Origin: a phage
DNA length: 64,000 nt
NCBI GenBank assembly: GCA_011939005.1
Contig: GCA_011939005.1_4858.1
Direction: 5' to 3' (one strand)
The stretch's first letter is position 1. Each line of letters starts with the position of its first letter. This document shows, piece after piece, positions 9,321 through 63,002 of the stretch. A program made the position numbers and the translations under genes. Under the pieces are notes generated by a model, which was not told where the DNA came from, ran no database searches, and saw only the letters and a program-made list of their open reading frames with translations.

Positions 9321-9893
9321 TTACACTTTAGGTGCGGTAGTCTGTTGCTTCGCGTTGCTCTTATTCAGCTTGTATTCAACAACTTTGGCACCAATGGCCA
9401 TCGAATTGTAAGCAAGCGTCTTAATCGGCCATGTAAAGAACACGGCCTGAGCAAACAAAGGTAAGAGCGCCACAATCAGCACATCCGTTAACTCTTCTGG
9501 ATAATGCAGGTGTGTGTCCCAGGCCATCGCGCCAGTAATCACCACAGTGGTCAGCACCAACAAAACGATAAGGACTTTCTGAGGACCTTTTAAATTCGGC
9601 CACAGGGTCAATAACGTTTCTTTGGCAAGCTTTTCATCCATACTCTCCACAGCTGCTTTCGCCTGTGATTCAAACGTCTTCGCCATATTCCCAACCTGTT
9701 CAAGAATCAGGGGGCGTAGTGACGTAAGAATCACGTTAGCAGGCTTAGTGACATCAATTACAACATCACTTCCCAAAGCGGTCTGAGCGGCTTTTTTTAG
9801 TCGGGCGCTCTCTTCCAGGCTTAATTTGTTGGTGCCCGCCTGGATAAGAACATCCAACACATCCGTCGAAGCTTCTTGCAAAGACTGCGACAT
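9321..9893 (-). CDS. integral membrane protein
   Basis: two to three hydrophobic helices (VLIVLLVLTTVVITGAMAW, VLIVALLPLFAQAVFF); GGAGGAAAT SD. Confidence 0.5.
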   Translation of the reverse strand: MSQSLQEASTDVLDVLIQAGTNKLSLEESARLKKAAQTALGSDVVIDVTKPANVILTSLRPLILEQVGNMAKTFESQAKAAVESMDEKLAKETLLTLWPNLKGPQKVLIVLLVLTTVVITGAMAWDTHLHYPEELTDVLIVALLPLFAQAVFFTWPIKTLAYNSMAIGAKVVEYKLNKSNAKQQTTAPKV

Positions 9894-37134: not shown

Positions 37135-37896
37135 TTACGCTGCTGGTTCTTCAGCGGTTTTCACTTCAACTGGTTTCATCAGCGAGTTCGCACAGTCGAA
37201 GATAGCATCCAGGAAACCACGGAACGGCTTCATGGCTTCACGCTGGGCGTTCTGACGTTCTTCTTCAGCTGCGACTTCTTGCGCCTGAATTTCTTCAGCA
37301 GTCAGCTCCGGGTGTTCCGTCATGCTTTCTGCCAGCGTCATCACTTTCGGCTGCGCATTCCGAATCGGAATACGGCGGATGACCTTGGTGATGTTCCCGA
37401 GCTTCATGCCACCCAGCACGGTTTCGAACAGCGTACCGAAATCCTGCAGTGGATCTTCGCTGACTTCCAGTACCGCCGGAGTCGCAACCAGACCAATGGC
37501 AATGACCAGTTCAACAACAGTGTCAGTGACGTGCACAGCGAACGGGGTGTCTTCCATCTGCAGGTAAGTGTTACCATTATAGGTCACCGGAATGAATTTG
37601 ATTTCTTCCCCTTTCTTCAGTCGCAGTGTATCGACTGCGGCTTTGTACTGAACTTCGTACAGTTCCGGTTTAACACCGTCAACGTTATCCAGTGTAAAGA
37701 GCAGGTCACCAACCGCCATACGGCGCGGCAGTTTGCGTTTGTTGATTTCGCGCAGCCAGACTTGTAAGCCTGTGAATTGAATTGGGGACAGTATAATTTT
37801 AAAGCCGTTGGTTGCTTGCAGGATAGCACCGTCGTCTTCGTTACGTTCGATAGAGCCATTAGCCAGAGTGAGCAGATTGATAGTTTTCATTTTCAT
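37135..37896 (-). CDS. hypothetical protein with acidic C-terminus
   Basis: 253-aa ORF downstream of promoter copy 3. Confidence 0.5.
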   Translation of the reverse strand: MKMKTINLLTLANGSIERNEDDGAILQATNGFKIILSPIQFTGLQVWLREINKRKLPRRMAVGDLLFTLDNVDGVKPELYEVQYKAAVDTLRLKKGEEIKFIPVTYNGNTYLQMEDTPFAVHVTDTVVELVIAIGLVATPAVLEVSEDPLQDFGTLFETVLGGMKLGNITKVIRRIPIRNAQPKVMTLAESMTEHPELTAEEIQAQEVAAEEERQNAQREAMKPFRGFLDAIFDCANSLMKPVEVKTAEEPAA

Positions 37897-40647: not shown

Positions 40648-40703
40648 TTGTTTCGGTTCCTTTGGTTATAACCCAATTACACGCCCCTAGATAAGGGGCC
40701 CCC

Positions 40704-41261
40704 TTAGGGACGTGCGATTTTTAAAAACACTGCTAACGACGAGATCATATCGGATAACCCGTTCGGACGTGTCAACCAACGTGCCAGCAGTTCGTGGTCT
40801 GCATAAGATAATAGACGCCGGTCAGGCGTGTACGTCTGATGCGCAGTTCCCATACGGCGAACTTGCCCACTACGACCGTAAGCCGCAGCAAGAAGTCGTG
40901 AGCCCAGGGAACCGGTTCGCTCTACTTGCTTAGTAGAGTGGATATCGTTCATGTACGATACCAGAAGAACGGACCACTGTCCTGTTGACACTGTACGGCG
41001 TTTACCGTCAAGTATGAACGATGCAGATTCGTTATAAAACGTATTAAACGTAAAACCGACCTGCGGATATTCGTCATATAATACTTGTTGGACAGAGTCA
41101 GCGCCCATCATGCGGAAATACGGCAGCACGACGGCTGCAGCTTCCAGGGTTTCATGTATCAGTTCGTCGTCATGAACCAGCACGGGGTTTTGGGTCAGTT
41201 TCGCCATGTAGTTTTTAATCAACTTCTCGGCGAGGTTAAAATTCTGGTCATTGTCAAACAT
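40704..41261 (-). CDS. hypothetical protein
   Basis: 185-aa ORF with AGGAGAG SD. Confidence 0.5.
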   Translation of the reverse strand: MFDNDQNFNLAEKLIKNYMAKLTQNPVLVHDDELIHETLEAAAVVLPYFRMMGADSVQQVLYDEYPQVGFTFNTFYNESASFILDGKRRTVSTGQWSVLLVSYMNDIHSTKQVERTGSLGSRLLAAAYGRSGQVRRMGTAHQTYTPDRRLLSYADHELLARWLTRPNGLSDMISSLAVFLKIARP

Positions 41262-47632: not shown

Positions 47633-49366
47633 TTATTCGCCGTCAAGCATGTTTTTGCGATTATTGCCTTTCACCAACGGGTTACGTTTGGCCAGGTTCA
47701 GTATCGTCTGCAATGTAGCGGCAGCACTGCAACAACGACGCACCAACGACAGGTTACGACGCAAGCCGACGAAGAGGTCTTCGTCACCGTCTGGGGAGAA
47801 TAACACCATCGAGAGTTCACGACCGTCGGTACGCAGGCCAGAAGGCTGATTAAGCTCATTCATGATGACTTCGCTAATCAGGTTAACGTATTCAACGTTA
47901 TCCTTGGTTGCTTTCTGGAACTGCTCCAACACTTTAATCGTGTTGTTAACCGCCTTATCCAGTGCACTGTAACGATTCAGGTTAGTCGCAGCGGTGTCGT
48001 TGGTAAAGCCTTGTTTACCTAACGTTACCACTACAGCCAGCAACTCACGTTCGTCACCAACCGATAACGTGCCTGCCTGGCGCATTTGCTCTAAGCACTC
48101 GCGTCCCAAGAACGCAGATGCTTGTGCGTTGACCAATACCTTACCAGGCACGAAGTCCACACCATCGTCATGACCCACTAAACCACGAACTTTGTTTTCT
48201 GGGATAACGACCAAAGGTGCAGTAGCGTATTCGAATCCTTTGCGGGAAACGTCGCTGATGATGAAGTTCATCGTGGTGTTCAGCTGCGCTAACGCCTGAC
48301 CGAAAATAAGCGCGGTGTCGTGTGCTGCTTTGTTAACTTGCTTACCGTTGTGCGTGGTGGTTGAACCTTGCTGATTCTTAAAACCTTCGGCGACGCTTGG
48401 GTCAATCATCGCTTTAAAGGCACTCTGGAGCGAGCCAAAGTAACCGATAAGTTCGCTGGCAACATTCGACATCTGATGGAAGTTCAACAGGTTCGGAATA
48501 CGCACACCGGCTTCGCGAGCAGACTTCGGTAACGCCTGCCAGGCTTTCTTACCCACTTCAATCGGGTAGATACCGTACGTCACGTTGTGTTGTAACAGGG
48601 TGTCTAACAGATCGTGAATAACCTGCTGGCTTGACTGACGTTTCTTAGTGTAGCCTTTGAACAACTCAGTGAACGGCGAACGACCCAGCGCGCTACTCAA
48701 GTCGTTCAGATACTCTTCCGCGTTCATGTTCGTAAACACTTCGTCGGCCATCGCGATAGCCAAGTTCAGGTTTTCCAGGTCACGACCTTTCAGACCCTTA
48801 GAGGCTTCGATGTATGCATCTTTCACTGCGCTGATTTTCAGCTGACCAATGATAGTATTTTCGGTCTGGGAGAAACTCTCTGCTTTTTCGCCGACTTTCT
48901 CAGCGTAACCTTCGCCGTCAAATTCGCCATTACCAGCAAACCCGTTACCGTTGCTGATAATCCAACCGATGATTTTGATAATCGCGGTCATGATCAACAC
49001 AACCAATCCCACTTTACCTGCATTTGCCCAGGATTCGAGCGCAACAATAGTCTCTTTCTGGTGCGTGCGGGTATAGTTCGAGGTCAGGATTTTGCGAACG
49101 GCTTCGGGAATTGTACCTGGGCGAGAAGATTCAACAGCGACAGCGACATCTTTCGACAGACCTGCGCGACGCACTTCGTCAAGAATCGCGTCAATTTGCA
49201 GAATCAGTCGAGAGCCGTAGATTAAGTCAGCTTCGTTGCGTTGCATGTACAGATTGAGCTGGTTGACAGAATCAATACGCTCGGCCATACGTGAACGCAG
49301 GACTTCACCGATCTCCCCCAAACGCCATTTGGGGTGGGTGGCGTTACCTGTCATTTCCATGCTCAT
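47633..49366 (-). CDS. hypothetical membrane-anchored protein
   Basis: 577-aa ORF; hydrophobic segment VGLVVLIMTAIIKIIGWII; stop of upstream gene overlaps start. Confidence 0.5.
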   Translation of the reverse strand: MSMEMTGNATHPKWRLGEIGEVLRSRMAERIDSVNQLNLYMQRNEADLIYGSRLILQIDAILDEVRRAGLSKDVAVAVESSRPGTIPEAVRKILTSNYTRTHQKETIVALESWANAGKVGLVVLIMTAIIKIIGWIISNGNGFAGNGEFDGEGYAEKVGEKAESFSQTENTIIGQLKISAVKDAYIEASKGLKGRDLENLNLAIAMADEVFTNMNAEEYLNDLSSALGRSPFTELFKGYTKKRQSSQQVIHDLLDTLLQHNVTYGIYPIEVGKKAWQALPKSAREAGVRIPNLLNFHQMSNVASELIGYFGSLQSAFKAMIDPSVAEGFKNQQGSTTTHNGKQVNKAAHDTALIFGQALAQLNTTMNFIISDVSRKGFEYATAPLVVIPENKVRGLVGHDDGVDFVPGKVLVNAQASAFLGRECLEQMRQAGTLSVGDERELLAVVVTLGKQGFTNDTAATNLNRYSALDKAVNNTIKVLEQFQKATKDNVEYVNLISEVIMNELNQPSGLRTDGRELSMVLFSPDGDEDLFVGLRRNLSLVRRCCSAAATLQTILNLAKRNPLVKGNNRKNMLDGE

Positions 49367-49806
49367 GAAATTTGCCCTTTCAGTTCTGCCATGTAGAAAC
49401 CAACCACTTCCATAAAGCGGCTAATCCACAGACCGACGGTTTCCCAGATATCTTCCCCGAGTGCCTGGTTGAAAATCTCACGAACAGAGAAACTTTCCAG
49501 GGCTTTAGCGCCGCCATACACGTTGCAGTAACGATTGCAGTACAGACCCACGGTCATGTCCTCAATCACGCCCAAATCAACACAGTACAGCTCGTTAACG
49601 TCAGAGACGATATTACGCATTACCGGACGTAAAAACGTCCCAGCGGCCTCTGCAGCGCCATATTGGCCATTATCAGCCAGTACCGCGTTATACGCCAGTG
49701 AGAAAGCAACCAGGCCGGTCAAAGCACGCTGGGCGTGTACGCCTTTCCCTTCGTTGGTACGTTTGAAATCCAGTACCAGGTTATTTAAAGAAACTTTATG
49801 CGTCAT
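49363..49806 (-). CDS. hypothetical protein
   Basis: 147-aa ORF with AAGGGTA SD. Confidence 0.45.
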   Translation of the reverse strand: MTHKVSLNNLVLDFKRTNEGKGVHAQRALTGLVAFSLAYNAVLADNGQYGAAEAAGTFLRPVMRNIVSDVNELYCVDLGVIEDMTVGLYCNRYCNVYGGAKALESFSVREIFNQALGEDIWETVGLWISRFMEVVGFYMAELKGQIS

Positions 49807-49821
49807 GTTAAGTACCCTTAC

Positions 49822-51174
49822 TTAGGAAGAAGTCGCCTGACTAAGCTTCGCAGAAGCCACACGCAGGTCATTAGAAAGATAGCGCTCCATCGTACGCTGA
49901 TAATCCACCCCAGCACGTTCACGGCGACCGCCAGGGGTCAGCGTTTTCATGATGAAGCTAAAGACGTTGTCTTTGTCTTTCACGGTTTTCAGTAGTTCGT
50001 CGATAGACGCAATGCCCTGCAGAATACGTTTACGATGTTCGTTCGCTTCTTTCGTGGTACTGCCTTTTAAGGTGTTCAGCTCTTCCACTAAGTTACGACG
50101 CATCGTCTCAAAACGTTCCTGCGGCGGATCGTAGATGGTGTTGCGTGGGTCGTTCACAATCAGGCCGAACGCGACTGAGATAGTCGTGAAGAACAGGCCA
50201 ACTGGATTAGTCGAAGCCACAATCAGCAGCGAAACGTTAAGCATCTCCAGCATCAGATGCACGCCGTAGTTCATGTACGACGCGTTCCGGCAGAGATAGA
50301 ATTGAGACGTTTCGATTTTGTACAGGGCTGACGCCAGGTACGGGGCTGCACCAAAGCGAGCTGCGAAGTCATCTGCAGCACGTTCCCAGGTACGGTTAGC
50401 GAACCCTTCCGAACCGGTAACAAACGGACGCTCAAGCAGAATGTCTGTCACTAGATGCATGTAGATGTTCTCTTTAGACATCTCTTTGCAGATAGTTTCC
50501 GGCTGATTCACTTTGGTGTTCAGCATACGTTCAACGTCTTTTACGACTTTTAAACGCACGGTCGGGTCTTCTGTTTGCATCATGCGGTTCGCTGCAGCAT
50601 CCGCAATCAGGTTCGTTACTACCGTACGCATCAAGGTACGGAAATAGTAATAGATGTGGCCGACTTCATGTAGAATAATCGCCGCGACTTCTAAATCCGT
50701 TAACTCGATACCGGTCAGTAGTTTCGGGGTCAGCCAAAGTGGGGACGGCACCTTGCTGAGTTCGCCTGAAAGCTTCGCATTTTTATCGTCGAACTCGCCG
50801 TTCAGCTCGTTCTCTTTTAAGAACTTACTGTAGACATCCAGGTCGATGTTACCCTGCACCATCTTGCGTTGCAGGTCGGCGATGATTGGGTTGTTCGCGT
50901 CGAGCTTCGGTGGCTCCACACCCGCAAACACAACGTCCGCCACACCTAAGTCGGACCCGTTACGAGGCAGGACTGTAATACCGTTGTTGTCAAAGACCCA
51001 GGCAGCAATACCAGAACTCTGATAACCCGCTGGCGAGAAGTCGCCCGCATCACGGAACTTACGTACCACTTCCGCCAAAGAGGCGAGTTTCTTTTTATCT
51101 TGGAATCCGATGGATTCCGAGGCCACGGCTTTCGCGTCGGCCAACGAGGTTATGTGCTTTTGCCAGTGTCCCAT
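49822..51174 (-). CDS. HExxH zinc metallopeptidase-like membrane protein, putative
   Basis: AIILHEVGHIYYY contains HExxH; C-terminal hydrophobic helices (VSLLIVASTNPVGLFFTTISVAFGLIV); AAAGGAACG SD. Confidence 0.4.
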   Translation of the reverse strand: MGHWQKHITSLADAKAVASESIGFQDKKKLASLAEVVRKFRDAGDFSPAGYQSSGIAAWVFDNNGITVLPRNGSDLGVADVVFAGVEPPKLDANNPIIADLQRKMVQGNIDLDVYSKFLKENELNGEFDDKNAKLSGELSKVPSPLWLTPKLLTGIELTDLEVAAIILHEVGHIYYYFRTLMRTVVTNLIADAAANRMMQTEDPTVRLKVVKDVERMLNTKVNQPETICKEMSKENIYMHLVTDILLERPFVTGSEGFANRTWERAADDFAARFGAAPYLASALYKIETSQFYLCRNASYMNYGVHLMLEMLNVSLLIVASTNPVGLFFTTISVAFGLIVNDPRNTIYDPPQERFETMRRNLVEELNTLKGSTTKEANEHRKRILQGIASIDELLKTVKDKDNVFSFIMKTLTPGGRRERAGVDYQRTMERYLSNDLRVASAKLSQATSS

Positions 51175-51244
51175 TTAGACGTTCCTTTTAGAAAATACGT
51201 TACCCACAAATCAGTATAGCAGACACCATATTTGAGAGTAGACC

Positions 51245-53029
51245 ATGGAAATCAATACCTATTACGCACCCGAGGATGTCATCGCTAAAGAGTGCAAGCA
51301 CGTCGCTTATGCGACGGACGAAGAAAAAGAAAATGACTTTGTCCTCATCAAAGAGGTCATCCATACTAAGGATGGCAGGCTTATCCCGCGCTTGGTAATG
51401 CGTGAGAATTTAAAGCGTCCGGTGTACGTTACCCGTGAAGAATATCGTAACCACCAGGAGAAAAAAGAGTTCGAAGAAAAAGGAAAATGTCAAGAACTCT
51501 GGACTACTGATGCGCAGATGGCGAAGACGTTGCAGATGGGTTTAGGTGCACGTTTCCCTGACCCGAAAAAGAACCTGCGCCGAGTCTGTACTAGCCCGTA
51601 CGTTTATTGGGCCGACTTACCGATTACCAGCTGGATTAAACAGAAATACTTAAAGCGCTGGCCGAACAATATCAGTCCTAACCGTCTTTGCGTATACGAC
51701 GTGGAGACTAACGAAATGGACGGCACGAAGGAACCGTGGATCGTGTCATTTATCTTAGACGATGAAATCCATTTCTTTGGTGCTAAGAACTACATGGACC
51801 GCATCGGTAAAAACGCGGAAGAAGTCATTCTCAAAAAAGCGCAGGAACTCTTAAGCAAAATCGAATTCGATGAGAAAGACAAAAAGACTGGCGAAAAGGT
51901 GACAAAGACCAAAGACATTATCAGCGGTTATAAAATATTCACCTATACCTGCGCTACGGCAGGGCAGTGCATCGTCAGGATGTTCGAAGAAATTCATCCA
52001 CGTCTTCCTGATTTGCTGGTCGCATGGAACCACCAGTTCGATATTTCACGCATGTTGGAAACCTTGCAGAAAGAAGGTATCGATCCACTGGGCGTCTTTA
52101 ACCATCCGGATGTTCCGGAGAAATACCGTCGTCTATGGTTTAAAGAAGACCAGGCGAACAAAAAGACAGAATCCAAGTCACTCACCAAAGCACCGTCACA
52201 ACAGTGGCACGTACTCTACTGTACTGCGTCTTTCTACTGTGTGGATGCCATGGTGCTGTTTCGTTCGTTGCGTGTCCACGAAGGGCAACGTCCTTCGTAC
52301 AAGTTATCTGCCATACTGTACACCGAACTCGGTTTACACAAACTCGACATTCCTGGACTGCCGTATGAAGATAACCTGCAATGGCACATAAAAGCACAAC
52401 GGGACTACCCTGCCGAATATGCCGTATACAACATGATGGATAACTTGTTAATCGTGTTGCTGGATAAGAAGACGAACGACCTGTCTTCAGCAATATCCAT
52501 TCTGGCAGGTTTCTCAATGTACGATATCTTCCCGTCGCTACCAAAACGTATCTGCGTGGCCTTTACCTATTATCTGTATGACAAAGGATACGTCATCGGT
52601 TCCGTAGGGTCTGCAATGCGTAACGATTACGATGAAGAGGTTATCGGTACAGACGGTTGGATTGTTACCCTGACAGCATGTATGAATGCTGAGAACGGTC
52701 TGAATAACATTCTGGAGGAGATTGACGAATATTACTCTGCGTTCCGTGGACAAACTGCGGATGCGGACTTAACCCAGGCTTACCCATCGGCCACAAACAT
52801 GATGAACCAGTCTCGTGAGACCACACTCATTGAGCTGCTATCCATCAATGGGGTTAGTGAAGAGATTCGACGTCGCACGGGCGTCAACTTAACTGCTGGG
52901 CGAGTTAATGCCATGGAAATAGCGACAGACTTCTTCTGCTTACCGGACAAAGACACTGTCCTGTCTACGTTCTTACGTAAGCAAGGGGAAGTAGTGACAG
53001 AGCCTATGGAGTACATCTGCGGGTTCTAA
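51245..53029 (+). CDS. DEDDy-type 3'-5' exonuclease domain protein
   Basis: Exo I VYDVETNE, Exo II NHQFDISRM, Exo III YNMMD at family-B-polymerase-like spacing; no polymerase motif A (DxxSLYPS) or C (DTD) seen. Confidence 0.45.
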   Translation: MEINTYYAPEDVIAKECKHVAYATDEEKENDFVLIKEVIHTKDGRLIPRLVMRENLKRPVYVTREEYRNHQEKKEFEEKGKCQELWTTDAQMAKTLQMGLGARFPDPKKNLRRVCTSPYVYWADLPITSWIKQKYLKRWPNNISPNRLCVYDVETNEMDGTKEPWIVSFILDDEIHFFGAKNYMDRIGKNAEEVILKKAQELLSKIEFDEKDKKTGEKVTKTKDIISGYKIFTYTCATAGQCIVRMFEEIHPRLPDLLVAWNHQFDISRMLETLQKEGIDPLGVFNHPDVPEKYRRLWFKEDQANKKTESKSLTKAPSQQWHVLYCTASFYCVDAMVLFRSLRVHEGQRPSYKLSAILYTELGLHKLDIPGLPYEDNLQWHIKAQRDYPAEYAVYNMMDNLLIVLLDKKTNDLSSAISILAGFSMYDIFPSLPKRICVAFTYYLYDKGYVIGSVGSAMRNDYDEEVIGTDGWIVTLTACMNAENGLNNILEEIDEYYSAFRGQTADADLTQAYPSATNMMNQSRETTLIELLSINGVSEEIRRRTGVNLTAGRVNAMEIATDFFCLPDKDTVLSTFLRKQGEVVTEPMEYICGF

Positions 53030-53045
53030 AACAAAAAAAGAAAGG

Positions 53046-53069
53046 CCTCTCTACCCTAGGGTAGAGAGG
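53046..53069. terminator. bidirectional intrinsic terminator between convergent genes
   Basis: stem CCTCTCTAC/GTAGAGAGG; T-run on + after (53072-53080) and A-run before (53030-53045). Confidence 0.55.
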
Positions 53070-53078
53070 TACTTTTAT

Positions 53079-53579
53079 TTAACCGCCAAAGGCGTGCATA
53101 ACCAGCGAACGCAGGTCCGGGTCGTTCAGGCGACGGGCCAGGCGGTCAACATCGTTGGTATCACGAAAACGGCCTTTATCGGCGCAACGTGCGTAACGAA
53201 TCAGCATGTTAATAAAGATAACGAAGACTTCACGCTCGTCACGATTCGGGAAGTTCTCACTGATACGGTTATTAGCAGCCGGTGCGTAGAAAATACCGTT
53301 ACGGTGCTTATTAGCCGCTTCTACAAAGGCGTAGAAACCGTCCAGGAAGGCCTGACCGCGCAGTTTAAACAGCTCACGGAAAGAGTGATGCAGCTTATTA
53401 TACGCATCTTTCTCAGCCTGGGTACCAGATGCTTTGCGTGGACCGGCATTGTTACCTGCTTCATCGAGCATCGTGGTGATCAGTTTAACACGATATTGGT
53501 CGTCGTTGCTGTAAGAAGCGCTATCACGGACCACGCCTTCTGTACGCGGGTCAAGGGTAGTAGTGTCTTTCTTAGTCAT
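53079..53579 (-). CDS. hypothetical protein
   Basis: start at ATG 53579 with AAGGA SD. Confidence 0.45.
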   Translation of the reverse strand: MTKKDTTTLDPRTEGVVRDSASYSNDDQYRVKLITTMLDEAGNNAGPRKASGTQAEKDAYNKLHHSFRELFKLRGQAFLDGFYAFVEAANKHRNGIFYAPAANNRISENFPNRDEREVFVIFINMLIRYARCADKGRFRDTNDVDRLARRLNDPDLRSLVMHAFGG

Positions 53580-53592
53580 GAGGAAACAATCC

Positions 53593-54891
53593 TTAGGTGA
53601 TGTGGAATTTAGGGATGTACTCTTTAACCACGGTTTCACGACCGTGCATCGCACCCATTGCAGTGGTCATAACGTTCGAGAAGCCGGAAGAGATATCCGC
53701 AGCGATTGCCCGTGGCTCTTCTGCTTTGTGTGCAGAGGAGCACGCCGCACAACAGTCTACGTGACCTTGCTGACATAAGATGGGTCGGCGGAGTCGAACA
53801 ACTTTACCAAATTGAGTTTTCAAATACTCTTCGGTGAGTTGGGTAACTTTACCGTTAACCATCGCGTTCATGCCAACATAACGCTTGTAGTTATACTGGT
53901 TAATTACAACTGCATGTGTCAGTTTTGTCCCGCAATCACCAGGTACGATTTTGTGGTTCTGGAAGATCATCTGGATGATACGTACTTGCTCACCACCCTT
54001 AGCGGTTTCTGCACCACGCATGAAGGAACCTTCACGAGTGTCATTGAACTTCTCTACCAGGTACTTCATCCCGGTCTGATCAACTTCCATCAGACTCGTT
54101 GGGATTAAGGTAAAATCTGCACCTTCTTTAAAAGCGGTCTGAATACCATACATCAGCATCAGCTTACGGCGACGCATACGCGCTTTAGGCGAGCTGTAGA
54201 ACTCAACGGACTGGTCGCCACTCAACCACTCTTTATCAAGTTCGTCGAGAGCTTTTTCAATCATAACGATAACCGCAGGGTTATCCAGTTCGTCTTTGTG
54301 CTTCAACAGCAACGCATCACGTACCTTATACGCGTCAGGATGCGTTGTAAGGCTTCTAATTGTTCCTGTTGGGACAATCCCACGACACAACGGAGCAAGC
54401 TCGTGTAGACCCCCTACAAAGCGTCCTATCATGTACGGTCGAATCGCGTCTTCGTTGTCTGGATCGGTGTCATCATATTCCACACAACGCTCATACATCT
54501 CTTTACGGTAGGCTAGTGGGTCACGAGACTCTGCCAGATACGGGAGACGGGTACCGAAAGCGTAATAGATAGCAATCCAGTTAAAGACATAGCGACCCAC
54601 GGTAGTCGGAATGGGACCAGCTAAACCTGGGTACATCTCAGGACGCAATTCAAACTGCTCTTCCGGCACGAACAGCCCTTCATCTTTTTTGCACCCTTCA
54701 ATCGGCACCCATTTAATTTCTTCGTTTTCCCAGTAGTGGGGCAAGCCGTCAATGTAGTTCAGGTCGTATTGCTCAGGTGGCTCACCTTTTTCATTAAAGA
54801 TAGCCACGTTGAAAACCGCAATACGCCACACCAGTCTACGCCAAGCTTCTGCTTTACACGCAGCGACCAGATAATCAATCTTGTTCATCAT
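53593..54891 (-). CDS. RNA polymerase beta-prime C-terminal-like subunit (paralog 1)
   Basis: GDCGTKLTH and RLRRPILCQQGHVDCCAACSS parallel beta-prime DDCGTHEG and VRSVVSCDTDFGVCAHCYG; GGAGGTAG SD. Confidence 0.45.
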   Translation of the reverse strand: MMNKIDYLVAACKAEAWRRLVWRIAVFNVAIFNEKGEPPEQYDLNYIDGLPHYWENEEIKWVPIEGCKKDEGLFVPEEQFELRPEMYPGLAGPIPTTVGRYVFNWIAIYYAFGTRLPYLAESRDPLAYRKEMYERCVEYDDTDPDNEDAIRPYMIGRFVGGLHELAPLCRGIVPTGTIRSLTTHPDAYKVRDALLLKHKDELDNPAVIVMIEKALDELDKEWLSGDQSVEFYSSPKARMRRRKLMLMYGIQTAFKEGADFTLIPTSLMEVDQTGMKYLVEKFNDTREGSFMRGAETAKGGEQVRIIQMIFQNHKIVPGDCGTKLTHAVVINQYNYKRYVGMNAMVNGKVTQLTEEYLKTQFGKVVRLRRPILCQQGHVDCCAACSSAHKAEEPRAIAADISSGFSNVMTTAMGAMHGRETVVKEYIPKFHIT

Positions 54892-58872: not shown

Positions 58873-59256
58873 TTAACTTGCATCGTGTGGAACAGTCACC
58901 CAATCGTGCCATTTTTCAGAGTAAAGACGATAAGCCATCTTTGGATTCTGATCGACACTACCGGCCGGGTTCTCATTCCACAACACGTACGTATATAACT
59001 CGTACGACGAAATGTTACGGATACTTGACGTGCGGGTGACGTAATACGTCAACCCGCGTTGGTTAAGGAACAGGCCGCTGTAATGTTCAGTGACCATGTA
59101 GTAATGAAACGCCTGGTTGATAGTGGCGTCGGTACAGAGTTTCTTAGCGACGTCTTCTACGCCGGGATACGCCTTTAGAATGTTTTCGAGAAAACTTGCT
59201 AAAGTCATTCCGATGTAGGGTGGCAGCGGCTCTGCTGGACGCGGCGGAGTGAGCAT
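58873..59256 (-). CDS. hypothetical protein
   Basis: 127-aa ORF whose 5' part overlaps the 3' end of the helicase gene; start uncertain. Confidence 0.35.
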   Translation of the reverse strand: MLTPPRPAEPLPPYIGMTLASFLENILKAYPGVEDVAKKLCTDATINQAFHYYMVTEHYSGLFLNQRGLTYYVTRTSSIRNISSYELYTYVLWNENPAGSVDQNPKMAYRLYSEKWHDWVTVPHDAS

Positions 59257-60850
59257 GTGATTTCCTTACAACGTAGGGGGATGTCGCGATACGGAACGAC
59301 AATACGACATCCTTGAGTGATTTCTGGCGGGCATTCAAGTAATTGCAATGCTTCGGTACGTTATACGCATGGAATAACCACACCGTTGGGTCTATTTCAC
59401 CCCACTCGTTGTGGAGAATCTTACGTGGACGACCAGCCATCTGTTCGTTCAGTTGCTGGTCTTCTACCGGGGTTGAGATGTACATGTGCACCAACCCAGG
59501 TTTATCGACCGCAGTCCCCGCTTTCCCCGGTGTGGAGATAGAGAAGTCTGCTTGGATAAAGTCGTCATACGAATCACCTGCATTATATTTCGACACCATT
59601 AAGGCGTGGAATATAGGGTCACGCGACAACTTATCTTTCACATACTCGGTAAAGAACTCACACATTGCAACGGTTGCAAAGAGTATCAAACATTTCTGAC
59701 CCGGCTGGTACCGCTTAAGAAACGATTTCTCAACCACATCCCAAATCATGTTTGCGTATTCTAAGTGTAAGTTCTCTTTAATCAGTTTCCCTTCGAAGAG
59801 TTTGTGGTTATACGGCGTCATCTTCGACGCCCACCACGCAAACTTCTTATCATCTAAACGGTAGTACAACGCTTTCACGTCGACTACCGGAACGATAGGG
59901 ATACTGATACGGCACTCCATTGGGAAACGCTCCATGTACCGTTCAGCGATAAACGCTTTACTGGAACCAGGAGTTAGCGTTGCAGACATTTCAATACTTG
60001 GTGGCGGGTTAAGCATTACGCCTGCCATGTAGACCAGGTGGAAATGCTCATGTACCTCATCCATTCCCAACAACCCGATACCCAGTACGTCGTAAAACGT
60101 ATCCAAGTCTACAGGGTTTGTTGCGGCTGTGTTAATGTACTCCTTCAGGAAACGCTGTAGCGTCACCGTAGGGAGGATTATCAGCTTAATCCCACGTCTA
60201 TCCAGCTCACCCGATTTACCCATCTCCAGGGCCTCGTAGATGGCCTGCACGCCGGTACAAACCAGCACGCCATCGCGAGATTCCCTTAAGCCCGTCGGGT
60301 CGTCAGTGGTATCGAATATCCACTTCGGAACATAGGTCGGTCGAATGATAAGACCTGTCCTAACGCCCTTCTTAACAACCACTTTCATGAAGCTTTTAGA
60401 TTTCCCGGCTCCGGTCTGGATGGCAAATATCGTCTGCTGTCGACCTGGGGTCATCGCCGCTTCGCTAACTTCGTTCTGATAATAGAAACGTGAGTTAGGA
60501 TCGGTGACCTCGAGATCGAATCCGTAATTATCAAACGTGCACTTATAAGGTTCTGCACGTTCGGGATGGTGCTCTGTCAGCTTGTACTGAAAAGCATATT
60601 CAATTGCTGCCCGTTGGAGGATATGTTTAATCTTCTCAGCGAACACTTTATGGAAAATGAATGTCCTTAAAGACGGAATGTGGGCGTAGTACGCGTCACC
60701 GCGTTCCGTAGTTATTCGTCCATGTTGCTTGCCCATCTTTGGGGCGTGCATATTCTCTTCGGCCCACGCGAGTATGGCCCTTTCAGCCTGGCGGATGGGG
60801 ACTTCAACCCGTACCCCCATACTCGTGTAAGTCATTTGAATTTCTACCAT
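59144..60850 (-). CDS. SF2 DExH-box helicase
   Basis: motif I IQTGAGKSKS, motif II GMDEVHE, motif III SAT; start at ATG 60850 just downstream of terminator 60875-60893; Arg-rich C-terminal tail. Confidence 0.55.
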   Translation of the reverse strand: MVEIQMTYTSMGVRVEVPIRQAERAILAWAEENMHAPKMGKQHGRITTERGDAYYAHIPSLRTFIFHKVFAEKIKHILQRAAIEYAFQYKLTEHHPERAEPYKCTFDNYGFDLEVTDPNSRFYYQNEVSEAAMTPGRQQTIFAIQTGAGKSKSFMKVVVKKGVRTGLIIRPTYVPKWIFDTTDDPTGLRESRDGVLVCTGVQAIYEALEMGKSGELDRRGIKLIILPTVTLQRFLKEYINTAATNPVDLDTFYDVLGIGLLGMDEVHEHFHLVYMAGVMLNPPPSIEMSATLTPGSSKAFIAERYMERFPMECRISIPIVPVVDVKALYYRLDDKKFAWWASKMTPYNHKLFEGKLIKENLHLEYANMIWDVVEKSFLKRYQPGQKCLILFATVAMCEFFTEYVKDKLSRDPIFHALMVSKYNAGDSYDDFIQADFSISTPGKAGTAVDKPGLVHMYISTPVEDQQLNEQMAGRPRKILHNEWGEIDPTVWLFHAYNVPKHCNYLNARQKSLKDVVLSFRIATSPYVVRKSHAHSAASSRAAATLHRNDFSKFSRKHSKGVSRRRRRR

Positions 60851-60874
60851 GCTGCCCCTCTTCGCACAAAAAAA

Positions 60875-60893
60875 GAGGGGCGCAAGGCCCCTC
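60875..60893 (-). terminator. intrinsic terminator hairpin
   Basis: stem GAGGGGC/GCCCCTC with GCAAG loop; A-run 60867-60874 on +; follows stop of 60897-63002. Confidence 0.5.
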
Positions 60894-60896
60894 GGT

Positions 60897-63002
60897 TTAC
60901 AACTCAATTACCACAGCGGCTCCTAGGTCATCGTACAACGATGCCGGGATTTTGTACTCGGTATAAAAACCAACGCGATCGATATTCCCCTGCTGTCCTT
61001 CAAACAACAACATCGGAATTGCTGAGCGCAAACTAATGAGCGTGTTGTGATCGACAAACCGTTTCCCGGTGGCATTAGTAGAATCCTCACTGTCAAATCC
61101 TACTGCCGGGAACGGATTGGTTGGCGACTCTACACGAGATATCGCCAACATAATCGCAATATGCGTCATCGGTATACCACTCAGCTTACGCTGGATATAC
61201 TTAAACGTGTCCATCAACGCATAAGTACACTGTTTCTCTGTAGCACCACCCATCTCAACCAACGTCACTGGTTTCACACGACCTTGTTTCTTGTTCAGCT
61301 TCACAGTCGATGCTGTGTTGATGATTTCCACAATGTCTTCGTTCTTATCAGCTGCAATCGAACGGAGCTTGGTTTCTAAGCCGGCTACGAACTCCGCCAT
61401 CGATTCAGAACGGTTGGTGTAGACCAGGACCGGGTGTTTCGGGTTCCATCCTTTCAAAGGAATCTGAACCGTCTTCTTCTCGATACGAATGTTCGCACGT
61501 TGTTTCAAGAAGTAATGCAAGAACGGTTTAGAGAAGTTCCCACAAACACCCATTCGCACATCGATAGAATCCGCAGCGATTATCTGCCCATCTTCTAAAC
61601 GACGTTGGAAAGTTAAGTCGGTGATTTCTGGTAATGCCGTTTCATCAATTGCATCGAGATCTTCATGATACGCAATCTGGCTCAGCTCCGAATAAACTTT
61701 GTCGGTAACAACCAACTCGTATTCTGACCAATTCCCACGCTGTGGTTTTGGCAGCAAGCACAACCCTTTCAGAGAGTTATGTTTGTATTCGGTCATATAC
61801 TCACGCATACGTGGGGTGAGTACCAGGTTGAGCAGATAACGCAAGAAGTCAAGGTGCTTGGTAGAGAGAATTCCCTGTGTACCCTTTTCCGAGATGGACG
61901 TGGATGCCAGATGACCTGGTGACGTACCTTCAGAGAGGTTATAAATCAAATCCCCCATACAGGTCGCACAGATGGACTGATTCGCCATCTCTTTACAGGT
62001 CATGGCACTACGGAAGACCAGCGGTTTGCCAACCAGGTCTGCGTATCCGCCTTTCTCAAATCTCAACCACGGACCATTATCGCCTTCTAAACGATAACGC
62101 ATCCCCACCATCGCTTTATAGGCACGCTCATCCAGCTGCGTATCCTTAAACGTGTAGCGGTGTGCGTGAGTTGTACCGCAGTCGTCGTACGTGAAATACA
62201 TCAGTACGTTTGCTGCCAACTGCAGTTTACGTGAGGCGTATTCTGCTTCGGCAATCTTGTCAGTGTTGTACAAGTGGGAACGTGAAGTTGCACCGGATTC
62301 TTTCAAACGCGAAATAACCGAATGCATTCCGGTAAAGAAGCCTTCCCACACCTGATTGGTGTATACACGTGAGTCAATTTCTGATGTTTTACCACGCACG
62401 AAGGCTTGCAATACCTGGTTCATCTTCACAGTACCGTCCAGTACCGACATCACGACCGGGTTATACCGTAGCGCAGGGTCTTTGAAGATTTTCTCGATAA
62501 GCTTGTACGCTTCTTCAACCATATCCCGACCATCTTCATCGTAGCCAGTAGGATATTGCACTTCCCACTGACGGATGAGTTCGAAGTTCGGATGGTCGTA
62601 GATCTCCATCATCGTATCAAAGTCGATTGTCGTGCAATAGGACAGCAGGTTCTTCACTGTCATGTTGAACGCATCGGCGTAGACATGTTGACTCAGGATA
62701 TAACGCGTTTCAGCAAGGTCGACACCTGCTTTACGGGCCAGTACCGCTGCTTCCGACATAAAGTCCAGATGCAGGTCATCTGTTGCTACCTGACCTGGAC
62801 GATACGCCATGGTCGATGGAGTGGGCACCTGCGGATACAGACGCGACACACCCCAATACGGCCAGCTGAGTTTGATGTGGCGACTAGACATTTCCAACGA
62901 CTTACCATCGTCGAAAGTCACGTAATAACGCCCGCGTAGTTTCCACACCTGATCAGAGTTAAGCATACGCAAATCACGCACGTGTACAGAACGACCCGCC
63001 AT
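60897..63002 (-). CDS. RNA polymerase beta-prime C-terminal-like subunit (paralog 2, trigger-loop region)
   Basis: YDDCGTTHA, RSAMTCKEMANQSICATCMG and SISEKGTQGILSTKH parallel beta-prime DDCGTHEG, RSVVSCDTDFGVCAHCYG and SIGEPGTQLTMRTFH. Confidence 0.5.
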   Translation of the reverse strand: MAGRSVHVRDLRMLNSDQVWKLRGRYYVTFDDGKSLEMSSRHIKLSWPYWGVSRLYPQVPTPSTMAYRPGQVATDDLHLDFMSEAAVLARKAGVDLAETRYILSQHVYADAFNMTVKNLLSYCTTIDFDTMMEIYDHPNFELIRQWEVQYPTGYDEDGRDMVEEAYKLIEKIFKDPALRYNPVVMSVLDGTVKMNQVLQAFVRGKTSEIDSRVYTNQVWEGFFTGMHSVISRLKESGATSRSHLYNTDKIAEAEYASRKLQLAANVLMYFTYDDCGTTHAHRYTFKDTQLDERAYKAMVGMRYRLEGDNGPWLRFEKGGYADLVGKPLVFRSAMTCKEMANQSICATCMGDLIYNLSEGTSPGHLASTSISEKGTQGILSTKHLDFLRYLLNLVLTPRMREYMTEYKHNSLKGLCLLPKPQRGNWSEYELVVTDKVYSELSQIAYHEDLDAIDETALPEITDLTFQRRLEDGQIIAADSIDVRMGVCGNFSKPFLHYFLKQRANIRIEKKTVQIPLKGWNPKHPVLVYTNRSESMAEFVAGLETKLRSIAADKNEDIVEIINTASTVKLNKKQGRVKPVTLVEMGGATEKQCTYALMDTFKYIQRKLSGIPMTHIAIMLAISRVESPTNPFPAVGFDSEDSTNATGKRFVDHNTLISLRSAIPMLLFEGQQGNIDRVGFYTEYKIPASLYDDLGAAVVIEL

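Follow-up and report, generated by a model that had tools for sequence, protein, structure and literature searches.

Salmonella jumbo phage SPN3US provides the closest described counterpart of the locus reported here. By published mass spectrometry, SPN3US gp45 is present in virions and in tailless heads and is cut at ASE-20 by the prohead protease; its abundance is mid-to-low (SC/M about 3) and similar to that of gp47 and gp50, and the protease, gp245, is found at SC/M about 1. Another protein, gp47, is an essential head protein that is cleaved at ALE-111, and a truncation mutant of gp47 gives virions that are intact but non-infectious; its authors predict that gp47 has a transmembrane (TM) helix (by TMHMM) and acts at the host membrane. 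Also, many head proteins of nucleus-forming jumbo phages are injected into a lipid vesicle, and for membrane-active ejection proteins of tailed phages, such as T7 gp14/15/16, P22 gp7/16/20, and SPN3US gp47, insertion into the membranes of the host upon infection is assumed. The gp45 gene is listed as the Chimalliviridae core gene cg22, and its product is annotated in databases as "putative virion structural protein". Iyer et al. (2021), furthermore, cited the ortholog AMR59696.1 from group 1 jumbo phages as a "conserved, uncharacterized zincin-like metallopeptidase"; the protease-like nature of gp45 was already in print in 2021, and its annotation as a metallopeptidase is correct but not new. 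New in the present analysis are the third zinc ligand, the conserved cleavage site, the signature of a hydrophobic hairpin, and polyprotein fusions to gp47-like proteins. Within the reach of our literature search, we found neither an assignment to M48 nor the third ligand, and likewise no mention of the hairpin, of the cleavage site across the family, or of the fusions; the search also returned no papers on PHIKZ084 or on an M48 peptidase in jumbo-phage virions, and the gene is absent from the main text of the antisense-oligomer phiKZ paper. [quoted passage not shown] The open reading frame delimited in an earlier reading of the sequence alone (the sequence-only reading) was confirmed in its extent, length, and strand (Table 1), and an AAGGAA ribosome-binding site lies upstream of its ATG. 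The encoded protein is identical at 448 of 450 residues to SPN3US gp45 and likewise to SEGD1_047 (AMR59696.1), from which it is set apart by two conservative substitutions, I110T and I174V. It belongs to phrog_2767 (E=1e-166), which also includes phiKZ gp84 and Goslar gp67. The gene is therefore the one for the SPN3US-type head protein gp45; it corresponds to cg22 and is orthologous to the gene of phiKZ gp84, and a single gene is known under many names (SPN3US gp45, SEGD1_047, phiKZ gp84, Goslar gp67, and RAY gp286).

Table 1. Positions in the window of the gp45 gene, the parts of its product, and the neighboring genes
Feature	Residues	Position (nt)	Strand	Basis or remarks
M48-like head-protein gene (gp45)		49822..51174	minus	ORF, 450 aa, ATG start
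N-terminal propeptide, cut by gp245 at A18-S19-E20 / S21	1-20	51115..51174	minus	published mass spectrometry
Three-stranded beta-sheet before the active-site helix	126-148	50731..50799	minus	secondary structure of both AF2 models
Active-site helix with H169-E170-V-G172-H173	160-199	50578..50697	minus	invariance, ZMPSTE24 alignment, pLDDT 95-98
"Glutamate helix" with R261-x-x-E264-x-x-A-D268-x-F-A-x-R273-x-G275	256-273	50356..50409	minus	conservation, ZMPSTE24 alignment
Hydrophobic helical hairpin with T-N-P-V-G turn	303-320 + 324-340	50155..50268	minus	hydropathy, entropy, pLDDT about 96
C-terminal all-helical domain, ~100 residues	351-449	49828..50124	minus	
gp46, 147 aa		49363..49806	minus	phrog_8529, downstream of gp45
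gp47, 577 aa		47633..49366	minus	phrog_8131; start overlaps gp46 stop by 4 nt
Spacer between divergent gp45 and gp44		51175..51244	no strand	70 nt, 63% A+T, both ribosome-binding sites
gp44, N-terminal fragment of split family-B DNA polymerase		51245..53029	plus	phrog_3011 "DNA polymerase", E=4e-251

A 70-nt divergent promoter region shared with a DEDDy exonuclease gene had been proposed upstream of gp45. The spacer is exactly 70 nt long, its sequence is identical to that in SPN3US, and the two genes are divergent; the promoters in it are presumed, and a scan of the 70 nt for sigma-70-type promoters found none (the phages use their own RNA polymerases). The divergent layout of cg21 and cg22 is also seen in Goslar, and a matching divergent pair is present in PCH45, in which the upstream gene encodes 601 aa. 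As for the neighbor, gp44 does carry DEDDy-type exonuclease motifs (D152xE154, N262xxFD266, and Y395xxxD399; the DTD motif is absent), but it is the N-terminal piece of a split polymerase and not a stand-alone exonuclease. Its homolog is annotated as DNA polymerase in NC_027402, and gp18 and gp44 have been named as polymerase subunits. A PDB sequence search with gp44 gave no match.

The HEVGH motif, from which a metallopeptidase had been suggested, is indeed found at residues 169-173 (nt 50656-50670). HExxH on its own is weak evidence for a peptidase; in the 18,940 aa of long ORFs in the window, 0.44 such motifs are expected by chance and two were seen. The other one, HEHFH in a helicase (phrog_16, ORF 59144-60907), was taken as chance. 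In gp45, the motif goes beyond chance, because it is 100% invariant among 139 homologs having a median identity of only 26% to the window protein; namely, H169, E170, G172, and H173 are found in every one of them, as are E264 and D268. The motif aligns to HELGH335-339 of ZMPSTE24. When a third ligand was looked for downstream, furthermore, E264 (nt 50383-50385) was found within E264-R-A-A-D268 at the position of E415 of ZMPSTE24, and it is predicted to be the third zinc ligand. This region aligns residue for residue to RRFE415FQADAFAKKLG of ZMPSTE24, including F-A-x-x-x-G; R273 and G275 are conserved at 91% and 96%, respectively, and the glutamate helix has the lowest column entropy in gp45. 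The beta-sheet preceding the active-site helix, in which G137 is invariant and which is free of insertions across the homologs, is expected to serve as the substrate-binding edge sheet of a gluzincin. We thus strongly infer that H169, H173, and E264 are the zinc ligands and that E170 is the catalytic base. Because these predicted catalytic residues are invariant at ~25% identity, gp45 is very probably an active enzyme and not a relic, as far as can be judged from sequence conservation.

In terms of family, the Pfam M48 profile (PF01435) scored the window protein at 18.1 bits (E=0.0025), which is below the gathering cut-off of 20.3; the same profile was matched by 36 of 100 relatives at E<=0.01 (best 2e-5), and no other family recurred. 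The family of gp45 is a divergent sister group of M48 and not a curated member. In a search of PDB sequences with a deep profile of the 139 sequences, ZMPSTE24 was hit at E=4.8e-5, the two motifs being aligned in their proper order, and the chain of its E336A mutant scored 6.5 bits lower with the same profile. With a profile of close homologs only, ZMPSTE24 was not significant (E about 0.5). The AF2 model of gp45 (pLDDT 91.3, pTM 0.91) had no significant Foldseek match in the PDB, and its full-length matches in BFVD include "Zincin protease" (AR9) and "Peptidase M48". The gluzincin catalytic fold is common to gp45 and the solved M48 structures, and we are highly confident that the central 130-150 residues constitute a divergent M48-type (gluzincin) zinc metallopeptidase core. 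Of the M48/HtpX-like nature ascribed to the protein in the sequence-only reading, the M48-type core, with its invariant ligands and the match to ZMPSTE24, was borne out, but the likeness to HtpX was not: the NCBIfam HtpX profile gave 12.9 bits against a cut-off of 422, and gp45 has neither N-terminal TM helices nor any TM helix between HExxH and the Glu ligand. Indeed, the spacing of H173 and E264 is fixed at 88-96 residues with no TM-like segment (mean KD of 0.49 at residues 160-199 and -0.38 at residues 204-253). A relation to M56 (BlaR1/MecR1) was also considered, and neither a profile nor a fold of that family matched gp45.

While gp45 had been described as a membrane protein, this does not hold for its state in the virion: the capsid is lipid-free, and gp45 is a capsid-internal head protein that is itself cleaved by gp245. 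The cleavage site, A18-S19-E20, is present in the window sequence. Among the homologs, E20 is kept in 138 of 139 with a small residue at position -2, and the logo of the site reads [S/G/A/T]-x-E before the cut and [A/S/G]-I-x-[F/Y/H]-Q after it; residues 1-20 are predicted to be flexible (pLDDT 55-57). Accordingly, gp45 enters the prohead, loses a 20-residue targeting peptide to gp245, and remains in the mature DNA-filled head. A related site is found in the fusion proteins P0079 and P0147 of some relatives, in which a gp47-like module is joined to an M48-like module via a conserved x-x-E cleavage site.

In the sequence-only reading, it had been proposed that the protein could process virion proteins or target a host factor. 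Given its location, gp45 might work already in the capsid. An accessory maturation peptidase, as has been suggested in print for this exact protein (Iyer et al. 2021), would degrade the released fragments of propeptides and scaffold to peptides of a size that can exit from the prohead or would make extra cuts in internal proteins, and the trimming of its N-terminus by gp245 would possibly activate it. As a substrate of gp245, gp45 is inside the prohead while gp245 is active. Propeptides of great length (111-254 aa) are cut off in these heads, and most of this material disappears from them. Several M48 and minigluzincin relatives, furthermore, act on peptides or unfolded chains, which would suit this role, and a function in head-internal assembly would be in keeping with the cleavable fusion to modules of other head proteins. 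A second protease is, nonetheless, not needed for the known cuts, since the A-x-E motif of gp245, a serine protease, is matched by 14 of the 14 cleavage sites that were mapped in heads of SPN3US. Clean-up proteases are also usually lost from the particle, whereas full-length mature gp45 is retained in the finished virion at an SC/M of about 3, and the conserved lipid-type hairpin described below would be left without explanation. We therefore regard maturation inside the prohead as rather unlikely to be the main task of gp45.

The hydrophobic helices noticed after HEVGH do exist, but they are located ~130 residues downstream, past the third ligand, and not directly after the motif. In the window protein, the hydropathy of this hairpin is borderline, with a KD19 maximum of 1.64 and an approximate Hessa sum of +3.95 kcal/mol. 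Across the homologs, the median KD19 is 2.25, with values of at least 1.6 in 134 of 139 and a negative Hessa sum in 54 of 139, and the global hydropathy maximum falls in the hairpin in 137 of 139. It is also the segment with the highest sequence entropy and the most variable length (standard deviation of 6.3 versus 1.2 elsewhere), and only 3.4% of its residues are charged, as compared with 25% overall. This variability is of the lipid-exposed type, with membrane insertion being putative, and the hairpin is considered as a candidate element for membrane insertion or for a hydrophobic interface. AF2 places it confidently relative to the rest of gp45 (pTM 0.91), which fits a buried position as well. 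The helical domain that follows contains E430, and the invariant Y348-D349 and R354 were noted as preceding that domain.

If the hairpin were buried in an interface of the inner vertex complex, gp45 could be a purely structural pseudo-enzyme of the head or vertex with a retained protease fold. Such proteins normally lose their catalytic residues, whereas all 139 homologous sequences, at a median identity of 26% to the window protein, keep H, E, H, E, and D; a specific interface would also be expected to be conserved in sequence and length, and the hairpin is the most variable segment. The annotation as a structural protein, the abundance similar to that of gp47 and gp50, the confident and compact model, and a density with no assigned protein beside Goslar gp65 in the vertex complex would all agree with a structural role. 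On balance, a pseudo-enzyme appears to us very improbable and is the least likely of the alternatives considered here.

The genes of gp45, gp46, and gp47 form a tight operon. By synteny, gp46 is the positional equivalent of phiKZ gp85 and Goslar gp66, which belong to the capsid's inner vertex complex. A BLASTP comparison of gp46 and gp47 with phiKZ gp85/gp86 and Goslar gp66/gp65 revealed no similarity, and the PHROGs also differ; the equivalence of gp46 and gp47 is thus one of synteny, and the authors of the SPN3US study concluded the same. A 137-aa ORF beside the P0079 fusion is 22% identical to gp46 over its full length. In gp47, a TM-like helix at residues 119-137 has a KD19 of 2.58, which is the maximum in the window.

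With vertex-complex genes adjoining that of gp45 and a conserved hydrophobic hairpin in its product, a membrane-anchored assembly factor could also be envisaged: the hairpin would sit in the host inner membrane, gp45 would nucleate or tether the vertex or the prohead and would then be drawn into the particle, and the peptidase site would be of secondary importance or would serve solely for release of the particle. Proheads of T4 begin at the membrane (gp40-type portal chaperones). Capsids of phiKZ-like phages, too, are said to assemble at the cell membrane and then to move to the phage nucleus (an observation attributed to Chaikeeratisak et al.), which would agree with such a factor. It is, however, topologically awkward to pull a membrane hairpin into the lipid-free interior of a capsid, and the absolute conservation of all catalytic residues would have no explanation. 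An assembly factor is hence considered improbable, albeit less so than the pseudo-enzyme.

We rather favor gp45 as an ejected cargo, because only this scenario gives a use to all three conserved features together, namely the signal for packaging and cleavage, the catalytic site, and the hairpin of lipid type. A peptidase that is carried as cargo and works at the membrane when infection starts is, in our inference, the most likely single scenario, even if it falls somewhat short of even odds. In this proposal, gp45 would exit from the capsid along with the DNA and the rest of the ejected head proteins, and its uncharged hairpin (303-340) would dip into the early-infection vesicle derived from the inner membrane. 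There it would lie beside gp47, which would bring its own TM helix and is needed for infectivity but not for assembly, and gp45 would cut a membrane-associated protein of the host or a co-ejected protein of the phage. Against ejection, the proteins for which injection has so far been reported in phiKZ or Goslar do not include phiKZ gp84 or Goslar gp67; also, the positional equivalents of gp46 and gp47 in these two phages have been resolved at fixed places within the inner vertex complex, and the gp45-47 module may therefore stay in the shell instead of being ejected. The scenario in its full form, in which gp45 is a virion-delivered membrane protease that is ejected with the genome, is inserted by its hairpin into the vesicle together with gp47, and cleaves a host membrane protein or activates a co-ejected phage protein, is accordingly put forward as tentative and is unlikely to hold in every part.

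As to its significance, gp45 is encoded by one of roughly 70 core genes that nucleus-forming jumbo phages have in common with some of their relatives. Apart from the virion RNA polymerase and the prohead protease, it is the sole core head protein here with a recognizable enzymatic active site. If an active protease is delivered into the cell, gp45 would be a new player in the first minutes of infection, during which the vesicle is formed and the host is taken over. Were it to act on the vesicle, gp45 would represent a conserved enzyme in the first compartment, bounded by a membrane, that the nucleus-forming phages and their relatives build. If gp45 instead acts inside the prohead, giant capsids would need a maturation system with two proteases.

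Among known systems, T7 gp14/15/16, P22 gp7/16/20, and SPN3US gp47 resemble gp45 in being capsid-internal proteins with hydrophobic segments; none of them is known to be a metallopeptidase. The T4 gp21-type serine prohead proteases, SPN3US gp245 and phiKZ gp175, are like gp45 in that a protease-type protein, as is predicted for gp45, is inside the prohead of the same phage. The fold of gp245 is, however, unrelated and its mechanism relies on serine instead of zinc, and gp45 is a substrate of gp245 and not its homolog; gp245 has been shown to make every mapped maturation cut, the one in gp45 included. In the catalytic core, the closest systems are peptidase family M48 (Ste24/ZMPSTE24 of M48A, HtpX of M48B, BepA, and Geobacter 3c37) and the minigluzincins (proabylysin and projannalysin), to which ~130-155 of the 450 residues of gp45 can be aligned with 13-20% identity. 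Neither the membrane chamber of seven helices known from Ste24 nor the TPR domain of BepA is present in gp45, and the four TM helices of HtpX, two of them N-terminal and two internal (between HExxH and the Glu ligand), are likewise absent. Instead, gp45 has a unique N-terminal domain, a hairpin after the catalytic core, and a C-terminal helical domain of ~100 residues, and it differs from family M48 also in being packaged in a capsid with a targeting peptide that is removed by a protease.

The region 49000-53200 of the window shares 98.6-98.7% identity with Salmonella phage SPN3US and Escherichia phage EC001, and the phage is an SPN3US-type (Seoulvirus) jumbo phage. The gene under study encodes gp45, which differs from SPN3US gp45 (YP_009153339, "putative virion structural protein 1") by two changes, I110T and I174V, and is identical to SEGD1_047 (AMR59696.1) at 448 of 450 residues. 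The protein is thus already known as a head protein validated by mass spectrometry; SPN3US gp45 was found by that method in purified virions and tailless heads, the serine prohead protease gp245 cuts it at ASE-20 to take off a 20-residue N-terminal propeptide, and its function is given as unknown (PMC10052503, PMC5694885). Its spectral count per mass is about 3; gp47 and gp50 have similar values, and the tail sheath, present in 264 copies, has 8.8. For gp45 this would correspond, very roughly, to tens to a hundred copies. Three conserved features of gp45 need to be explained: the packaging/cleavage signal, the intact catalytic site, and a hydrophobic hairpin of lipid type.

Coordinates of gp45, its neighbours and related features (nucleotide positions in the window unless stated otherwise)
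Feature	Position	Strand	Remark
gp45 ORF	49822..51174	-	450 codons; ORF listing
HEVGH of gp45	residues 169-173, nt 50656-50670	-	gp45 sequence
Hydrophobic hairpin of gp45	residues 303-340	-	only marked hydrophobic stretch; two predicted helices, T-N-P-V-G turn between
Gap, gp45 stop to gp46 start	49806-49822	-	15 nt
gp46/gp47 overlap	49363-49366	-	4 nt
SPN3US gp47	47633-49366	-	top hydrophobic peak of 51 long ORFs
Spacer gp45/gp44	51175-51244		70 nt, 63% A+T; between divergent ORFs
gp44, DNA polymerase piece	51245-53029	+	phrog_3011 "DNA polymerase", E=4e-251
191-aa ORF	53079-53654	-	GTG start
RNAP beta-subunit gene	53593-54891	-
DNA helicase ORF	59144-60907	-	phrog_16, E=1e-56
Hydrophobic ORF 1	9321-9893	-
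Hydrophobic ORF 2	37135-37896	-
Metagenomic fusion locus	L006 2846-6466
Fusions, M48 module C-terminal			P0065, P0079, P0081, P0107, P0127, P0141, P0147, P0172
Fusion, M48 module N-terminal			P0093

The sequence-only reading had likened gp45 to M48/HtpX-like membrane metalloproteases, on account of HEVGH followed by hydrophobic helices; both elements are present, with the correction that the helices lie some 130 residues past the HExxH. Taken alone, this HExxH is not meaningful, since two such motifs are observed in the 51 long ORFs of the window (18,940 aa) where 0.44 is expected by chance, and it is conservation that decides. The other one, HEHFH at residue 286 of the DNA helicase, is most likely a chance occurrence. 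An exhaustive profile search retrieved 2,037 cluster representatives at E<=1e-3, of which 555 reach E<=1e-30. When 139 full-length members (median 26% identity to gp45) are aligned, G137, H169, E170, G172, H173, E264, D268, and R354 are invariant, with E20, D349, and E430 conserved at 99%. Also, Y348-D349 and R354, just past the hairpin, and E430 in the C-terminal helical domain are 95-100% conserved outside the recognisable M48 core; our guess, by analogy with the C-terminal His/Arg of Ste24-type enzymes, is that they might complete the active site.

The Pfam Peptidase_M48 match of gp45 (residues 151-288, E=0.0025, 18.1 bits) falls below the gathering score of 20.3, and because this curated threshold is unmet, we use "M48-like" rather than curated M48 member; yet of 100 relatives scanned singly, 36 match M48 (best E=2e-5), the only family to recur. 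While a profile made from close homologs only gave an insignificant E of about 0.5 against ZMPSTE24, that of the 139 sequences reached E=4.8e-5. The match consists of two collinear pieces, in which ...AAIiLHElGH is aligned to ...LAVLGHELGH335-339 and RswEqlADqFAaRhG to RRFE415FQADAFAKKLG. Gp45 E264 therefore falls on E415, which is known to be the third zinc ligand in the M48 archetype; this predicted ligand answers the check for a downstream Glu or His that the sequence-only reading had proposed. The E336A mutant chain of ZMPSTE24 scored 6.5 bits lower. For two minigluzincins, proabylysin and projannalysin, the scores were 6.0 and 5.4. ZMPSTE24 was also top-ranked by Foldseek for the gp45 model, at a level that is not significant. 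A second, very confident model built from the 139-sequence alignment (pLDDT 91.3, pTM 0.91) has the same secondary structure as the first: residues 126-148 form a three-stranded sheet, 160-199 the active-site helix, and 256-273 the glutamate helix. As judged from profiles and models, the core of gp45 is a predicted divergent M48-like gluzincin with all catalytic residues intact. HtpX is ruled out by 12.9 bits against an NCBIfam cut-off of 422 and by a different transmembrane topology, and M56 by the absence of M56 matches for gp45 and its relatives. That gp45 is a pseudo-enzyme is very improbable and would account for the packaging/cleavage signal only.

A predicted prohead-protease site, [S/G/A/T]-x-E↓[A/S/G]-I-x-[F/Y/H]-Q (arrow, cleavage), is a family-wide feature of gp45 homologs, with the E present in 138 of 139 members; the propeptide is short (median 12 residues) and is the sole poorly ordered part of the gp45 model. 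An accessory peptidase for maturation or clean-up inside the capsid would account for this signal together with the intact catalytic site. Such a role is rather unlikely. Each of the 14 cleavage sites mapped in heads matches the A-x-E motif of gp245, which does not favour another protease for maturing the proteins that stay there, a comparison that is blind to degradation of fragments leaving the head.

The hydropathy maximum of the protein falls in the hairpin in 137 of 139 members, with a median KD19 (a hydropathy score of protein segments) of 2.25 and values of at least 1.6 in 134; gp45 is among the weakest (1.64), with phiKZ gp84 at 2.09, Goslar gp67 at 2.31, and the PCH45 ortholog at 2.50. 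Column entropy peaks in the hairpin (2.9-3.2 bits vs 1.7-2.1 in the catalytic helices), as does the variation in length (sd 6.3 residues vs 1.2 for flanking anchor-to-anchor distances), and charged residues make up only 3.4% of it (25% overall). From the alignment, the hairpin is evidently kept as a property and not as a sequence, a pattern that resembles lipid-exposed segments and differs from that of packed cores and specific protein interfaces. Since gp45 resides in a lipid-free capsid, any membrane stage would have to precede assembly or follow ejection. A membrane-anchored assembly factor would explain the hairpin and the packaging/cleavage signal, two of the three features, and is improbable. 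The most likely single scenario, to which we give a probability of about 0.4, is that gp45 would be an ejected, membrane-associated putative protease, which is favoured because it accounts for all three.

The short gap to gp46 and the gp46/gp47 overlap show that these head genes form a tightly coupled minus-strand operon. SPN3US gp47 is essential, a truncation mutant giving intact, DNA-filled but non-infectious virions; the mature protein begins with a predicted transmembrane helix, and the authors of that work proposed its ejection and an encounter with the host membrane. In the hydropathy scan of the 51 window ORFs, the gp47 peak (KD19 2.58, residues 119-137, VGLVVLIMTAIIKIIGWII) starts 8 residues past the published ALE-111 maturation cleavage site and is followed by a Gly-rich stretch. 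A similar helix (residues 113-131) occurs in the PCH45 ORF at the gp47 operon position, and none was found in phiKZ gp86 by hydropathy scan. Hydrophobic ORFs 1 and 2 of the table (KD19 2.49 and 2.17) are candidate membrane or ejection proteins.

In several metagenomic relatives, the M48-like module is the C-terminus of proteins of 800-1,450 residues, which resemble polyproteins and join it to other head-protein modules. Every junction of these C-terminal-module fusions falls precisely on a preserved x-x-E↓[S/A/G]-I-x-[F/H]-Q; the prohead protease would therefore release the module. The N-terminal parts of P0079 and P0147 match phrog_8131, to which the window gp47 belongs (31% BLASTP identity over 117 residues between gp47 and P0079), the fused module of P0107 matches phrog_18338, and P0141 appears to have two transmembrane-plus-Gly-rich modules ahead of the peptidase. 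P0079 is encoded by a single uninterrupted ORF of its contig, and the next ORF (137 aa) shares 22% identity with the window gp46 over the full length. The fusions and this gp46-like neighbour tie gp45 functionally to gp46 and gp47. The positional equivalents of gp46/gp47, phiKZ gp85/gp86 and Goslar gp66/gp65, are parts of a cryo-EM-resolved vertex-binding complex on the inner capsid surface, in which unassigned density adjoins Goslar gp65; phiKZ gp84 and Goslar gp67 are mentioned neither in that cryo-EM work nor among injected proteins.

On the other side of gp45, the 70-nt spacer proposed by the sequence-only reading does separate it from a divergent gene. The neighbour was called a DEDDy exonuclease gene; the DEDDy domain is right, with Exo I/II/III-type motifs at D152xE154, N262xxFD266, and Y395xxxD399, whereas gp44 is not a free-standing exonuclease and is instead a fragment of a split family-B polymerase. 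Indeed, the SPN3US DNA polymerase is in two pieces, gp18 and gp44. A motif scan of gp44 found no DTD motif, and with neither Pfam nor PDB sequence matches at E<=1, it is therefore a very divergent piece. The head-to-head arrangement recurs in Goslar, and PCH45 has a divergent pair that matches in arrangement, with an upstream gene of 601 aa. The divergent promoter proposed by the sequence-only reading stays putative; a scan of the spacer for sigma-70-type promoters found none, which is unsurprising because the phage uses its own RNA polymerases. Beyond gp44, the 191-aa ORF shares ~60 nt with the 3' end of the RNAP beta-subunit gene; SPN3US gp43 (record 40674-41174) is a shorter version of 166 aa, and the true start is therefore probably an internal ATG.

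In terms of known systems, gp45 corresponds to cg22 (Goslar gp067, phiKZ gp084, and RAY gp286), a core gene of the family of nucleus-forming phages. Table S3 of PMC10299810 labels it "putative virion structural protein" and does not mark it as restricted to phages that encode chimallin. In agreement with the latter, a structure search of viral proteins gave full-length matches in many jumbo phages (TM up to 0.8); more distant ones include the "Zincin protease" of Bacillus phage AR9 and proteins of uncultured myoviruses annotated as "Peptidase M48" or "beta-barrel assembly-enhancing protease", and a few GenBank homolog records bear similar automatic names. The central idea of the earlier reading is correct, and its M48-like part essentially right, yet it had been published at the "zincin-like" level, as Iyer et al. 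(2021) named the ortholog AMR59696.1 (SEGD1_047) a conserved zincin-like metallopeptidase. The residual value lies in a core gene with a putative peptidase role, to which our analysis adds new links: a cleavage site kept across the family, a hairpin of lipid type, and fusions with gp47-like proteins. Compared with the prior work, the assignment is narrowed from zincin-like to M48-like, with E264 as the predicted third ligand.
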